From: an uncultured virus (IMG/VR IMGVR_UViG_3300036766_001719)
Lineage: Duplodnaviria; Heunggongvirae; Uroviricota; Caudoviricetes
Direction: 5' to 3' (one strand)
IMG/VR virus record: IMGVR_UViG_3300036766_001719
DNA length: 20,000 nucleotides
Numbering within the stretch: position 1 is the first letter of the stretch; each line of letters opens with the position of its first letter. Below, piece after piece: positions 5,801-8,756 of the stretch. Position numbers and translations under genes: made by a program. The notes under the pieces are model-generated. The model had not been told where the DNA came from and ran no database searches. It saw only the letters and a program-made list of their open reading frames with translations.

Positions 5801-5830
5801 TACGGGACGCTTTCGCATCCAAGTTTAACT
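5801..5830 (-). promoter_or_regulatory. Y-like stem hairpin in the 5' leader of the Ro60-like gene
   Basis: ACUU-GGAUGC-GAAA-GCGUCC-CGUA directly before AAAGGAG; 5804-5826 is identical to 7748-7770. Confidence 0.7.
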
Positions 5831-5880
5831 ACTCTAGCCTAACACAACATTAAATTAATTACTATCCCTAAATCAAAAAA

Positions 5881-5949
5881 TCCGTCTTAGTTTGGAAAGC
5901 TTTTTACCATTTGCAACAATGTTTGTAAGCTTTCCGTATCGGAGACGGA
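5881..5949 (-). ncRNA. Y-like RNA A (minimal, open-ended stem)
   Basis: UCCGUCU-CCGAUAC-GGAAAGCU-UACAAAC...AGCUUUCC-AAACUA-AGACGGA. Confidence 0.75.
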
Positions 5950-5982
5950 TGTATCGGTGTTGCCATTTAAGGCAACTCTATA

Positions 5983-6102
5983 TGGCGGGCGAGGCAAGAT
6001 TTTACTTGCATACTTCAGTTTTACGGACTGATGCTTGTATGTTTCTAAAGTAGGGAACACTTGCATGTTCTAGTCTTAAAAACTGGTTTCAGCTACTCGC
6101 CC
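5983..6102 (-). ncRNA. tRNA-like RNA B (GUA anticodon, CCA encoded) with a Y-like stem inserted in the D loop
   Basis: GGGCGAG/CUCGCCC-GCCA acceptor, UCAGU-CCGUAAA-ACUGA arm, degenerate T loop; insert ACUA-GAAC...GUUC-CCUA...ACAUACA. Confidence 0.72.
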
Positions 6103-6669
6103 ATAATGTTCTTTTCTATGGCAATTCCCGCACAACAAAATACACTTCATGATCTCTTCTAAAATCACCTTAATAGAACACTTTTTATGACAAAGGTTTC
6201 CAATTACATCTCTTTTGTCTTTAATGTGGTGAAATTGCAAACATTCTGTATCTTTTAGAGCACAAACCGCACAACTACTCATAGACTTATAATCCCATAC
6301 AAACGCTATGTTTCTATTTACTCTTGGGTTTAAGTTAACGTAATTATCATCTTTCTTGTGAAATTTTAAATGGCAATTTACACACAGCAAATCGCATTTA
6401 TTTATTTCCTCTAGAACTATAGCGTGACTAAATCTAGTAATGCCATCGGCTATCTCAAATAACTTTTCCTCTGGATTTCTGTGATGAAACTCCAAGCATA
6501 TTACTTCTTTCTCTCCACATTTGATGCAATAACCTTTACTTTTTAAATCGTTAATTAACGACTTAAAATTTTTTCTACTCCTACTTGCTCTCTCTCGAAA
6601 GCTTTCTTTGTTGTTTGAATAATAAGAGGCTCTCCATCTTACCTCTTCCGCTTTGTCTTTATAAGGCAT
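6076..6669 (-). mobile_element. Tandem (two-domain) HNH homing endonuclease
   Basis: Two CxxC...FHH...CxxLCxNCH repeats; 3' end overlaps the 5' end of RNA B. Confidence 0.85.
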
Positions 6670-6697
6670 AACTTAAAGTAGTTATACCTTATTGATT

Positions 6698-6768
6698 TAA
6701 CCGTCCAAGTTAAAAAAGCTGTTATAAACACCACTTGTTTGTAAGCTTTTTAGGTGCGGGACGGATTA
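6698..6768 (-). ncRNA. Y-like RNA C (minimal)
   Basis: CCGUCC-CGCACCU-AAAAAGCU-UACAAAC...AGCUUUUU-UAACUU-GGACGG. Confidence 0.75.
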
Positions 6769-6769
6769 G

Positions 6770-6842
6770 TGGCAGCGATAGGATTTGAACCTATGATCTC
6801 AACGTTATGAGCGTTGCGAGATAACCACTTCTCTACGCTGCT
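6770..6842 (-). tRNA. tRNA-Met(CAU), initiator-like
   Basis: Cloverleaf with CAACG-CUCAUAA-CGUUG and T loop UUCAAAU. A1:C72 mismatch and A11:U24 are initiator traits, but the three consecutive G:C anticodon-stem pairs are missing. Confidence 0.88.
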
Positions 6843-6860
6843 ACACTTAAAAACCTCATT

Positions 6861-6981
6861 TCGTCCAAGTTTTGAAAACTGTTTGGAAAACAATACTGGA
6901 TTTGAACCAGTACAGCAACTTGTTAAGAGTCGTGACCTACCATTGGTCAAATTGTTTGTAAGTTCTCAACATTGGGGACGA
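6861..6981 (-). ncRNA. Y-like RNA D carrying a complete tRNA cloverleaf (UAA anticodon, internal CCA)
   Basis: UCGUCC-CCAAUG-UUGAGAACU-UAC-[AAACAAU, GACC/GGUC, CGACU-CUUAACA-AGUUG, ACUGG-UUCAAAU-CCAGU, AUUGUUU-UCCA]-AAC-AGUUUUCAA-AACUU-GGACGA. Confidence 0.8.
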
Positions 6982-7001
6982 AACAAAGCTTTCTTACAAT
7001 T

Positions 7002-7229
7002 TCAACCGAAGACCGCATCAGGTCGCAACGTCAACTCGCCCGTTGCCTCATTACGGTCAATAGCAAAGTTTCTAAGCTTTGCCAAAGGAACATTGAGATG
7101 CGTAGCTACGGCGGTACGAATCTGCTCATCCGTAGAGAGCGTTCCAACGTCCAGGTCGTTCAGGGGAATATCCCAACTACGACCTTCATACCGAACGTGA
7201 ATTTGCGGAGCCGTCATCGTGTTTTCCAT
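7002..7229 (-). CDS. Small ubiquitin-like (putative beta-grasp) modifier ending in ...RPDAVFG
   Basis: 75 aa, AGGAGG Shine-Dalgarno, pattern compatible with beta-beta-alpha-beta-beta, terminal Gly, same strand as the E1 and JAB genes. Confidence 0.7.
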   Translation of the reverse strand: MENTMTAPQIHVRYEGRSWDIPLNDLDVGTLSTDEQIRTAVATHLNVPLAKLRNFAIDRNEATGELTLRPDAVFG

Positions 7230-7268
7230 CTCAACCTCCTTTTTACTCTTGTTTACTTCATCTACAAC

Positions 7269-7297
7269 ATTATACTCGACATCAACTAGATTGTAAA
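7269..7297 (-). promoter_or_regulatory. Sigma70-type promoter TTTACA-17-TATAAT upstream of the Ubl gene
   Basis: Near-consensus match. Confidence 0.75.
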
Positions 7298-7300
7298 GTA

Positions 7301-7424
7301 AAATTCGTCCAAGTCAATAAAGCTGTCAAGAAACTTTCGGAATTGAACCGAAAACTTCAACCTTGAGGGTTGCGCTCTACCAATTGAGCTAAGTTTGTAA
7401 GCTCTATCCATTGGGGACGAATTT
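7301..7424 (-). ncRNA. Y-like RNA E carrying a tRNA-like cloverleaf with a short acceptor stem
   Basis: 10-bp AAAUUCGUCC/GGACGAAUUU, AUAGAGCU-UAC-AAACU/AGUUU, D arm GCUC-AAUUGGUA-GAGC, CAACC-CUCAA-GGUUG, UUCGG-UUCAAUU-CCGAA. Confidence 0.8.
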
Positions 7425-7426
7425 AG

Positions 7427-7561
7427 TGGGGGAGCCTGGATTTGAACCAGGACTCTTTAGCTCCGAAGGCTAACGTCTTTGCCGTATGTAAGTTGAAAAT
7501 GTCGGGAACAATTTCTTGTTCAAGTCTCAACAACTGACAGTCTTAATTAGACTACTCCCCC
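7427..7561 (-). ncRNA. tRNA-Arg(UCG)-like RNA F with a Y-like stem inserted in the D loop
   Basis: GGGGGAG/CUCCCCC, GUCU/AGAC D stem, UUAGC-CUUCGGA-GCUAA, CCUGG-UUCAAAU-CCAGG; insert ACUU-GAACAA-GAAA-UUGUUC-CCGA...CAACU-UACAUAC. Confidence 0.8.
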
Positions 7562-7591
7562 ATATATCAAACTAACTAACATTCTTTTTAA

Positions 7592-7693
7592 CTGCTGTCA
7601 AACTTTCTCATTTATAGCCCTTTCGACTTTTTAAAGTCATCGTTTGTAGGCTATTAAAGTGGAGACGCTTTCGCATCTAAGTTTTAACAGCAG
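7592..7693 (-). ncRNA. Y-like RNA G (GAAA-capped stem, two alternative folds)
   Basis: GCUGUUAAA-ACUU-AGAUGC-GAAA-GCGUCU-CCAC-UUUAAUAGC-CC-UACAAAC. Confidence 0.65.
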
Positions 7694-7726
7694 ACGGACC
7701 AAACCTTTAAGAAATTCTTCTGCTAA

Positions 7727-7780
7727 GTTTGTACGCTGCACATCTAGGGGACGCTTTCGCATCCAAGTTTCAGCAGCAGT
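7727..7780 (-). ncRNA. Y-like element H (GAAA-capped stem; may extend over 7689-7806)
   Basis: GCUGC-UGAA-ACUU-GGAUGC-GAAA-GCGUCC-CCUAGAUGU-GCAGC-GUACAAAC. Confidence 0.65.
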
Positions 7781-7818
7781 GCTTACCGTTAGGTAAAGCC
7801 TCTGCTACGTCAACCATA

Positions 7819-7885
7819 GTCCAATTTCCGCATGTTTAAATTCCTCTTAGCTTTCTTTAGTTTGTAAGCTATAAAGGTTGGGGAC
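7819..7885 (-). ncRNA. Y-like RNA I (divergent 3' strand)
   Basis: GUCC-CCAACCUUUA-UAGCU-UACAAAC...AGCUA-AGAGG...AAUU-GGAC. Confidence 0.55.
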
Positions 7886-7975
7886 AAGTAGTAGGACCGC
7901 CCCTACGTTATCCGAGTTTTCACAGCGGGTCGCAACTCATTAATCTTTTTCTAGACTTAACTCATTGCTTCTATC

Positions 7976-8003
7976 ATTCTACTTCGTTTCGGTCAATTGT
8001 AAA
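7976..8003 (-). promoter_or_regulatory. Putative sigma70 promoter TTTACA-16-TAGAAT
   Basis: Near-consensus match upstream of RNAs I/H/G/F/E. Confidence 0.55.
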
Positions 8004-8028
8004 CTAAATTTTCCGAAAAAATAAAAAA

Positions 8029-8359
8029 CACTGTTTTAGTTTCCAGAGCGAAAGGACATATTACTATGGCCGTGCGTGATGTACAGATATTACTCTGTAC
8101 ACTCGTTTACACGCAAGTCAATCGGCCCTGGCTTCCGCCAGTGGGTTGATATTTAAATCAACCCTCGACCACCTTTTCAGGCTCCCGTAAGAGACTGACC
8201 GTGCAATTGCGGAAAAGGTTCACACCTTACATCCGATATTTTTTATCAGATGCTCCTTGGGATGTTCAACTATGCTTTGTCGGCATAGTCATTAAACCAA
8301 GGAAACTCGCTACCTTAGGACCGGCAGTTGTTTGTAAGCTCCAAAGGTCGGAAACAGTG
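8029..8359 (-). ncRNA. Large (~330 nt) multi-hairpin RNA J enclosed by a Y-like stem
   Basis: CACUGUUU-CCGAC..GGAGC-UUACAAAC ... GCUCU-GGAAACUA-AAACAGUG followed by U6; many internal hairpins. Confidence 0.72.
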
Positions 8360-8362
8360 CAG

Positions 8363-8485
8363 CGGCGTTTGAAGGATTCGAACCTTCTCAAAAGCTTATT
8401 AGGCTTTCTCATTCCAATTGTTTGTAAGCTTAAAAGATGGGGAACAATTTCTTGTTCAAGTTTATCAAGCCACTTTTAAACGCCG
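8363..8485 (-). ncRNA. tRNA-like RNA K (AAU anticodon) with the D arm replaced by a Y-like stem
   Basis: CGGCGUUU/AAACGCCG, AAAGC-CUAAUAA-GCUUU, GAAGG-UUCGAAU-CCUUC; 22-nt core identical to F and M. Confidence 0.78.
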
Positions 8486-8492
8486 TAAATTA

Positions 8493-8635
8493 AAACCGTC
8501 TTAGTTGAAAAAACTATTCTTAACGTGTCACTTTAAAAGAGTGATGCCTTTACCATTAGGCTACAAATTCTTACGAACTTGACGGGATTCGAACCCGCAT
8601 ATGTGTATGTAAGTTCTATCTGTTGGAGACGGTTT
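8493..8635 (-). ncRNA. Y-like RNA L carrying a circularly permuted tRNA-Lys(UUU)-like domain
   Basis: Order inside the Y stem: T arm GCGGG-UUCGAAU-CCCGU, acceptor CAAGUUC-GUAA-GAAUUUG, D arm GCCU-AAUGGUAA-AGGC, anticodon arm UCACU-CUUUUAA-AGUGA. Confidence 0.82.
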
Positions 8636-8637
8636 AG

Positions 8638-8756
8638 TGGATGACCTTGGAATCGAACCAAGAAGAAATTTAAAAATTTCTTTGCCAGTTTGTAAGCTCA
8701 AAAAGTTGGGAACAATTTCTTGTTCAAGTTATACAAGCTAACTTTTTAAGTCACCC
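8638..8756 (-). ncRNA. tRNA-like RNA M with the D arm replaced by a Y-like stem and a degenerate AU-rich anticodon arm
   Basis: GGGUGAC/GUCAUCC, CUUGG-UUCGAUU-CCAAG; 22-nt core identical to F and K; UACAAAC present. Confidence 0.75.

Follow-up and report, generated by a model that had tools for sequence, protein, structure and literature searches.

A recurrent RNA module in a phage tRNA array is a probable docking site for an adjacent Ro60-like protein

Why does a phage carry 14 copies of one short RNA stem, most of them joined to tRNA-shaped RNAs, directly in front of a single gene? The question is raised by a stretch of 20,000 nucleotides (hereafter the window) of an uncultured virus of the Caudoviricetes (IMG/VR record IMGVR_UViG_3300036766_001719), in which an RNA module with a largely constant UACAAAC motif recurs within an array of tRNA and tRNA-like genes. 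The product of the next gene downstream of the array, on the same strand, is predicted to have the fold of Ro60, which the first-pass annotation of the window had missed. Ro60 and its Y RNAs are conserved from bacteria to humans, and what the second module of a Y RNA recruits is known in very few cases. Judged from sequence and predicted structure, the repeated module is probably a docking site for the adjacent Ro60-like protein. The docking site would most likely be of a new kind, by which Ro60 is linked to RNAs that resemble tRNAs. All sequences of the module, the tRNAs and the array are given as read on the minus strand.

The first-pass annotation had claimed 14 copies, and script pairing together with covariance models finds 14, all on the minus strand and between positions 5781 and 8745 (Table 1). 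The UACAAAC side of the module, which reads GTWTGTAVGY on the plus strand, occurs 12 times, always within 5921-8697, compared with a chance expectation of 0.35; none of 200 shuffles reached 12 occurrences. The pairing script joined 5' strands of the form N2-GUYY-CC-N13-UACAAAC with 3' strands in which ACUU or ACUA is followed by RRAY-N2. The spacing of the 5' strand is 19 nt in 11 of 12 copies. The output consists of 13 units and one lone 5' strand (7858-7933), and the latter was recovered by covariance model R1 as a hairpin copy whose internal loop carries ACUC and whose stem is extended. Altogether, there are eight local hairpins (R1, E<1e-6), five enclosing units (R2) and a further enclosing unit (8029-8359) whose insert is 289 nt long. 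R1 is the covariance model of the hairpin form and R2 that of the enclosing form; both models are partly built from copies of the window, so that their matches within the window hold by construction. Tandem Repeats Finder reported no repeat; the copies are dispersed, with unrelated inserts between them.

The consensus module consists of three parts and a tail: a lower helix of 6 bp (N2-GUYY paired with RRAC-N2, with invariant G-U and A-C), an asymmetric internal loop (CC-N-A-N-N on the 5' side, N-N-ACUU on the 3' side), an upper helix of 7-9 bp that ends in GCU paired with AGC, and the single-stranded UACAAAC. The lower-helix pairs are exactly those first described, namely GUCC with GGAC or GGAU, GUCU with AGAC or AGAU, GUUC with GAAC and GUUU with AAAC, and the helix extends to 6 bp in all 13 paired units. 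The description of the internal loop is likewise borne out by these units, with CC in 11 and CG in two of the 13, and ACUU in nine and ACUA in four. UACAAAC or UACAUAC is found in 12 copies; copy 6031-6090 has the variant UACAAGC, and the leader copy (5781-5840) is without the motif, as had been stated.

In one respect the earlier picture has to be changed. It described a single stem; the stem is real, but the module exists in two circularly permuted forms. In the enclosing form (six copies) the 5' strand comes first and the 3' strand follows after an insert of 26 to 289 nt. In the hairpin form (eight copies) the 3' strand comes first, followed by GAAA, GCAA or a longer loop and then by the 5' strand. 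Both forms are circular permutations of one rod, which is open at the lower-helix end in the enclosing form and at the UACAAAC end in the hairpin form. Minimum free energy (MFE) folds reproduce the lower helix in 13 of 13 copies of up to 150 nt (z between -1.4 and -6.1) and the upper helix in 12 of 13, the exception being the leader copy. The G-U pairs and GNRA loops are compatible only with RNA from the minus strand.

Compensatory changes, which the first reading of the sequence had proposed, are confirmed in both helices and both topologies by shuffles, slid controls and an unfiltered anchor test. The hairpin set comprises 28 copies from the window and eight related loci. Its lower helix is 100% paired, and two-sided changes occur in four of the six lower pairs as well as in eight of the nine upper-helix pairs. 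None of 500 shuffles matches the observed pairing or covariation score, and sliding the partner by 1-3 columns leaves a pairing of only 33-48%. Ten short enclosing copies give the same picture. The units of these sets were preselected by a complementarity filter, and we therefore ran a further test without the filter, with C[CGA]-N13-UACWWAC as the sole anchor: 66 of 79 anchors have a perfect 6-bp partner following ACU[UAC], versus 470 of 2157 (22%) foreign 6-mers. Both helices are maintained by compensatory change across phages with 53-74% identity in the Ro60-like protein.

The array ends 0-50 nt before the start of this gene (ORF 4290-5786). An AF2 model of its product, built on 20 homologues, has a pLDDT (predicted local distance difference test) of 83.7, and among the Foldseek matches listed for the PDB the top 12 are all Ro60 (E 6e-11 to 1e-7, template modelling (TM) score 0.57-0.68, 507-576 alignment columns). 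The model matches the Ro60 structures of human, Xenopus, Deinococcus (Rsr) and Thermus phage phiLo over its full length. According to the model, the protein has the Ro60 fold, a HEAT-repeat ring followed by a C-terminal vWA domain. Matches at the level of sequence are weak. The closest PDB sequence match is the phiLo 'TROVE domain-containing protein' (E 1.2e-5), and further matches are VWA_2 and phrog_850 'RNA-binding protein'. The model vWA_Ro60 (PF25045) matches 14 of the 20 homologues (best E 1.5e-6); the protein of the window itself scores 15.5 bits, below the cut-off of 27.7. The family comprises 2748 proteins at E<=0.001 among 7999 scored, many of them encoded on contigs of 340-595 kb. 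The locus would give access to a large Ro60 clade that standard models miss.

The copy closest to the gene, the leader copy 14, keeps only ACUU, the 6-bp lower hairpin (GGAUGC, GAAA, GCGUCC) and CG. Where other copies have the upper-helix strand and UACAAAC, it has the Shine-Dalgarno AAGGAG (5793-5798) and the start codon (5784-5786) instead; the ORF start at 5786 lies six bases after AAGGAG. The arrangement is repeated before the orthologous genes of two related loci, L125 (5934-5993) and L138 (5936-5995). Since the leader keeps the lower helix and the loop alone, these two elements point to the recognised core. Its position abutting the Ro60 ribosome-binding site suggests that Ro60 controls its own translation by feedback.

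The association of module and gene extends beyond the window. An alignment-based protein scan of viral contigs found 17 viral loci with related Ro60-like genes, for which a single-protein scan of the viral contigs had returned no relative; a megablast search of 4290-9300 against GenBank phages gave no match. The module lies upstream of the orthologous gene and on the same strand in 11 of the 17 loci (L122-L129, L131, L137 and L138). R1 has 24 matches in five whole phage records of 340-572 kb; every one of them lies upstream of the Ro60-like gene, at a distance of 0.1-4.5 kb, and there are none in the rest of these records. When 76 viral loci (400 kb) were fetched by the bare sequence pattern, R1 or R2 matches were obtained in only two, both from Ro60-encoding contigs. 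Locus L130, which covers 409 bases before the gene, has a single weak R2 match there, and L133-L135 gave no module match with R1, R2 or regular expressions. In locus L136 (3900-5000, plus strand), whose Ro60-like protein is 41% identical, we find a variant module: CCGCRC is paired with GYGCGG, GAAAC replaces ACUU, and UACAUAC is kept. One pair of the variant is compensated (CCGCAC with GUGCGG). The variant suggests that the docking sequence may change together with the protein.

What does the module carry? Most copies are joined to tRNA-shaped bodies, either at the acceptor end, at the variable loop of a YrlA-like permuted tRNA, or in the D-loop of tRNAs that are complete apart from the hairpin. 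It would be wrong to count 14 free-standing Y RNAs here: several copies are tags within or around bodies shaped like tRNAs. ARAGORN and Rfam call six or seven tRNA genes in the window, all on the minus strand, and two tRNA-like domains enclosed by the module score above the gathering score of the Rfam tRNA model (RF00005), with 51.2 bits for 7328-7398 and 51.9 bits for 6887-6957. In these acceptor-end units (copies 9 and 10), the AAAC of UACAAAC forms the first base pairs of the acceptor stem of the tRNA-like domain. There are 13 clear paralogues from eight phages, with a common acceptor (AAACAAU paired with AUUGUUU) and common D and T arms. An encoded N73-CCA stands directly before the 3' strand in seven of the 13 enclosed domains. 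Anticodons vary even among orthologous units (UAA in W_6979, CCA in L125_5406, UAG in L138_4634), and where the anticodon is one of Leu or Ser, the variable arm of the domain is short instead of long. The fixed acceptor, the short Leu/Ser variable arms and the differing anticodons of orthologous units argue against a role in decoding.

The insert of copy 2 has a different order: a T arm, a 7-bp acceptor hairpin with a GUAA loop, a D arm, and an anticodon-like arm with the loop CUUUUAA. Copies 1, 3 and 8 are hairpins inserted into D-loops, between matching acceptor halves and upstream of the T arm. The insertion point is located in the D-loop, before G18 G19. The interrupted tRNAs are recognised by ARAGORN only once the hairpin has been deleted in silico; this holds for two of the five copies tested from the window and for 15 of 23 in total, with anticodons of Phe, Lys, Met, Arg, Asn and Ile. 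Copy 12 appears, from flanks identified by eye, to lie within a degenerate tRNA-like RNA at about 5983-6102 with the acceptor halves GGGCGAG and CUCGCCC-G-CCA. The stop codon of the HNH gene 6076-6669 overlaps the 5' part of a tRNA-like RNA. A literature search did not find tRNAs with a large extra D-loop arm described.

The remaining copies are free-standing or surround either a short hairpin or a conserved structured RNA of 289 nt. The unit with the latter (copy 4) is 84% identical to L125:3400-3730 and has a conserved core and variable peripheral hairpins with compensatory changes. Rfam gives no match to the insert at E<=10, and it may represent a new structured RNA that Ro60 would carry as cargo. 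A likeness of its start to a conserved stretch of 23S rRNA was considered and dropped: the 16-mer is in no fetched locus, and RNAalifold pairs the stretch with the module's own strand. Three consecutive hairpin copies outside tRNAs are seen at 7575-7933 (minus strand), at about 3880-4100 in L125 and at about 3040-3130 in L138, and a GGAYUAUGGUUGACG-like stretch is conserved between the three copies in the three phages. Standard annotation overlooks at least four tRNA-shaped genes of the window and all 14 modules.

The close association with tRNAs allows a different account, according to which the modules are processing signals: an RNase III-like endonuclease of host or phage would free the tRNAs and the Ro60 mRNA from a long precursor, and Ro60 would be a mere neighbour. 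The array does resemble one transcription unit. A lower stem, an asymmetric internal loop and an upper stem flank the tRNA-like domains, an ordinary tRNA-Met lies between two copies, and there are the encoded N73-CCA ends mentioned above. However, the sequence of loop and helices is conserved far beyond the needs of a structure-specific nuclease, and the modules are strictly tied to Ro60-encoding genomes. Cutting the D-loop hairpin copies would destroy the very tRNAs that carry them. The ordinary His, Pro and Glu tRNAs of the array are without a module. We regard the processing account as unlikely.

The hairpin form could also be understood as a selfish or intron-like insertion that spread into tRNA genes, with the enclosing form arising by rearrangement and no role of the module with Ro60. 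The same D-loop position is used in tRNAs of different anticodons, and homing endonuclease genes lie in and around the array (HNH 6076-6669 and 1570-2133, LAGLIDADG 3485-4327). Against this account, Rfam detects no ribozyme family, the 340-572 kb genomes contain no copies elsewhere, both helices are kept by compensatory change across phages, and an RtcB ligase is present in only two of five related phages and not nearby. Selfish spread therefore seems very improbable to us as an origin of the array. Reading the hairpin form as an intron was dropped as well, given that no ribozyme or intron family of Rfam has a match in the array and that the boundaries of the tRNA-yielding deletions are broad and uninformative. 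The homing endonucleases themselves are not conserved in related loci, except for a partial match to the 6076-6669 HNH gene in L124, and are therefore recent mobile insertions. The only group I intron found (Rfam, 67 bits) belongs to a related phage, where it lies in the tRNA array at L122:938-1125, just downstream of a tRNA gene at 837-910. An RtcB-linked repair operon of the Salmonella type was also considered for the locus and dropped, with RtcB found in two of five related whole records and not adjacent.

We return to docking of Ro60 as the preferred reading. The array would consist of phage Y-RNA-like RNAs built on one portable module that docks the Ro60-type protein encoded immediately downstream. 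Transcription would probably start at the consensus promoter at 8798-8825 and take in the phage tRNA array as well, the tRNAs and the Ro60 gene being on the same strand; this promoter-like site is a consensus match only, and such sites are not more frequent in the region than in shuffles (16 vs 13.2). Ro60 would recognise the lower helix and the internal loop, and would be tethered to a panel of tRNA-shaped RNAs that attract factors binding to tRNAs or act as baits for them; known Y RNAs link Ro60 to PNPase in this manner. Through the leader copy, which lies 6 nt from the Shine-Dalgarno sequence, Ro60 would repress its own translation. Binding, co-transcription, processing and feedback are inferences, as is any part that the array may play in the surveillance or defence of tRNAs. 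In a broader form, the module would be a portable Ro60-recruiting tag that huge phages graft on whole tRNAs, as an additional arm at the elbow of the D-loop, on tRNA mimics whose anticodons change rapidly among related phages, and on the 289-nt RNA, giving Ro60-tethered tRNA baits that, together with a co-inherited ubiquitin-like/E1/JAB set, sense, repair or blunt host attacks on tRNAs, with the leader providing feedback on Ro60 translation. Taken as a whole, this broader scheme is rather unlikely.

Several observations weigh against docking of Ro60. To our knowledge, a D-loop hairpin has no known role in a Ro60 particle. Other conserved neighbours could bind the module instead, namely the products of the 75-aa ORF and the 310-aa ORF (2571-3503), JAB and ThiF/E1. 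The adjacency of module and gene is not absolute, since on the related contig of L073 a second cluster of modules is found some 18-21 kb away from the Ro60-like gene and the module matches of L132 are about 3 kb downstream of the gene. The Pfam TROVE model matches none of the 20 homologues at E<=1. A comparison with the Rfam families Y_RNA and YrlA had been proposed at the outset, and nothing reaches the gathering score: Y_RNA (RF00019) has no match at E<=10 in 5500-10200, 5870-5960 or 8485-8645, no YrlA (RF02553) is found at gathering score in the window or eight related loci, and the best YrlA match (8546-8599) covers model positions 30-81 only, with 25.5 bits versus a gathering score of 69. 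Finally, GNCGAA(N)G near the 5' end, which is thought to mark the sites of the bacterial Ro60 orthologue Rsr (PMC4201824), occurs in none of the 14 modules; of its two minus-strand matches in the array (8791 and 7627), neither is in a module strand.

The conserved neighbours deserve consideration as binders in their own right. The module may bind another product of the operon, either the 310-aa protein with a possible OB-like barrel or the ubiquitin-like/E1/JAB set, with UACAAAC possibly being the second protein-binding site that had been suggested at the outset. The 75-aa ORF, the 310-aa ORF, JAB and ThiF/E1 accompany the Ro60-like gene in 15, 14, 14 and 12 of the 17 loci, respectively, and UACAWAC is retained in L136 although the sequence of the lower helix has changed. 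The model of the 310-aa protein has weak OB/S1/cold-shock-like matches (Z about 5), but these are within the range of chance (Foldseek TM 0.15-0.26, VIA Z at most 6.2, no useful Atlas match). Ro60 has a known role in sequence-specific binding of an RNA helix, whereas these proteins have none, and the leader, which is without UACAAAC, keeps helix and loop directly before the Ro60 start. A binder other than Ro60 is hence quite improbable in our view.

Irrespective of RNA binding, a ubiquitin-like conjugation set looks to be travelling with Ro60. The 75-aa ORF within the array has tblastn matches in 15 of the 17 loci; 11 of these 15 relatives end in Gly and four carry 2-5 extra residues. Its structural neighbours in the Atlas include Prok_Ub and ubiquitin (TM 0.53-0.59), weak matches at the level of a lead only. 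A literature search on a link between TROVE, JAB, ubiquitin-like proteins and ThiF found no description. If real, the link would mean that a virus couples Ro60 particles with protein conjugation.

The window as a whole looks like part of a very large phage. Two public sequencing runs were found that contain its sequence, both of DNA, and the only one with all of it is from a sediment metagenome. Its genes include PhoH, a dUTPase, thioredoxin, a sigma factor, DnaJ, a Cpn10-like protein and the two LAGLIDADG and two HNH endonucleases. A long and nearly perfect hairpin at 10107-10186, located between the genes for tRNA-Glu and thioredoxin, weakly matches several microRNA-precursor models on either strand (E 0.004-5) and probably represents a terminator or some other inverted repeat. 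A 148-aa ORF at 14584-15030 (plus strand) matches the Pfam ATLF metallopeptidase-like domain with 25.4 bits (cut-off 27.4), and its product is probably a small zinc-peptidase-like phage protein.

Table 1. Copies of the module and neighbouring features of the array, in the order of transcription of the minus strand, followed by further genes of the window. R1 and R2, covariance models of the hairpin and the enclosing form.
Feature	Coordinates	Strand	Evidence and remarks
Promoter-like site	8798..8825	-	TTGACA, 16 nt, TATAAT; 12/12 consensus; just upstream of copy 1
Copy 1, D-loop hairpin (8686-8745) in degenerate tRNA-like RNA	8638..8756	-	R1 69.5 bits; acceptor halves GGGUGAC and GUCAUCC, T arm present; no ARAGORN tRNA after in-silico removal of hairpin (0/476 deletions)
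Copy 2, enclosing, permuted tRNA-like core	8494..8634	-	R2 46.4 bits; MFE fold z -3.5
Copy 3, D-loop hairpin (8418-8477) in tRNA-like RNA, anticodon AAU	8363..8484	-	R1 65.7 bits; acceptor pairing; 64/476 in-silico deletions give ARAGORN tRNA-Ile(aat)
Copy 4, enclosing, 289-nt structured insert	8029..8359	-	Script pairing; 8-bp lower helix, CACUGUUU with AAACAGUG
Copy 5, hairpin, ACUC, extended lower stem-loop	7858..7933	-	R1 44.3 bits; MFE fold
Copy 6, hairpin (GGAUGC, GAAA, GCGUCC)	7725..7784	-	R1 64.1 bits; fold z -2.55
Copy 7, hairpin (AGAUGC, GAAA, GCGUCU)	7640..7698	-	R1 58.9 bits; fold z -4.68
Copy 8, D-loop hairpin (7482-7541) in tRNA, anticodon UCG	7427..7561	-	R1 63.6 bits; acceptor GGGGGAG with CUCCCCC; weak Rfam tRNA match 7427-7483, 25.4 bits; 216/476 in-silico deletions give tRNA-Arg(tcg)
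Copy 9, enclosing, tRNA-like domain (7328-7398), anticodon UCA	7303..7422	-	R2 50.2 bits; ARAGORN; fold z -4.3
75-aa ORF inside array	7002..7229	-	C-terminus ...RPDAVFG; conserved beside Ro60-like genes
Copy 10, enclosing, tRNA-like domain (6884-6957), anticodon UAA	6859..6983	-	R2 56.8 bits; fold z -3.55; short variable arm, encoded N73-CCA
Ordinary tRNA-Met, between copies 10 and 11	6769..6842	-	ARAGORN; Rfam 64.9 bits
Copy 11, enclosing, insert a short ACAAAC/GUUUAU hairpin only	6699..6766	-	R2 70.4 bits; fold z -2.63
Copy 12, hairpin, GCAA loop, UACAAGC	6031..6090	-	R1 60.4 bits; fold z -2.41
Copy 13, enclosing, short insert	5880..5950	-	R2 74.9 bits; fold z -6.08, 0/200 shuffles equally stable
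Copy 14, hairpin, leader	5781..5840	-	R1 37.1 bits
Ro60-like protein gene, predicted HEAT-repeat ring and vWA domain	4290..5786	-	Predicted fold, weak sequence matches
310-aa protein	2571-3503	-	14/17 loci
JAB peptidase, ThiF/E1-like enzyme (coordinates for the pair)	2176-2505, 924-1601	-	14/17 and 12/17 loci
HNH homing endonuclease	6076-6669	-	
HNH homing endonuclease	1570-2133	-	
LAGLIDADG homing endonuclease	3485-4327	+	
LAGLIDADG homing endonuclease	15019-16014	-	

How does the array relate to known Y RNAs? Two of their features are found here: an adjacent Ro60 orthologue, and a conserved helix with unpaired bases that is combined with a variable second module. The first-pass annotation had read the repeats as a Ro60-binding, Y-RNA-like stem. 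This stands in so far as a Ro60-fold gene is located downstream, in an order conserved in huge phages; the likeness to vertebrate Y RNAs, however, is limited to the GUCC of the 5' strand. A second point of likeness may exist between ACUUGGAC of the module and CUUGAC, which the first-pass annotation gives for the vertebrate 3' strand. In vertebrate Y RNAs as in the phage module, two distant strands form a helix with adjacent conserved unpaired bases and a variable second module, and GUCC is common to both (the 5' strand of the vertebrate Ro60-binding helix is GGUCCGA; PMC4201824). The phage module differs in that it has no Rfam Y_RNA match, the C forming a bulge in the vertebrate helix would here be part of a pair, and eight copies are local hairpins and not stems of the 5' and 3' ends.

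The likeness to bacterial YrlA (RF02553; PMC4201824; bioRxiv 10.1101/312249) is closer in architecture. YrlA RNAs are located within a few kb of a Ro60 orthologue and combine a Ro60-binding stem with a tRNA-like effector domain. The permuted core of YrlA (T arm, closed acceptor hairpin, D arm) is present in one of the 14 copies, 8494-8634, and the sealed acceptor end of this copy is also typical of YrlA. In contrast to YrlA, the opening of copy 2 lies at its variable loop, and a full anticodon-like arm is retained. No copy reaches the family score, the docking stem has another conserved sequence, and GNCGAA is absent. The remaining tRNA-like domains follow the normal order and carry the module either at their acceptor end or in the D-loop. 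For YrlA, 355 candidates from 254 bacteria and 22 phages are listed by Chen et al. 2014 (PMC4201824).

Bacterial and phage Ro60 genes with nearby Y RNAs are described in PMC12135203 and PMC4201824, and a review of jumbo phages mentions TROVE proteins in a small subset of them. The closest precedent is Thermus phage phiLo (PMC12135203; PDB 9KOP, 9L5Y), whose Ro60 homologue likewise has Y-RNA-like genes directly upstream. The phiLo Ro60 binds two such upstream RNAs, Yrl1 and Yrl2 (PMC12135203); of the two systems, phiLo is the one in which binding is experimental. The phiLo RNAs are two in number and carry a CGAA motif, whereas the present array has 14 copies with another motif, which lie within a tRNA array and within tRNAs. 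A literature search found no description of such module-tagged tRNAs or of such an array, although related phage loci could be among those in the supplements of Chen et al.

If docking of Ro60 is the correct reading, the docking motif is unlike the bacterial and animal ones, and it comes with enough natural variants to define its rules. Moreover, the same tag at three positions on the tRNA body would amount to a natural experiment on the placement of Ro60 relative to its cargo. What is distinctive here, in comparison with the systems above, is the docking motif, the copy number, the two permuted forms, and the fact that whole tRNAs are tagged with the module.

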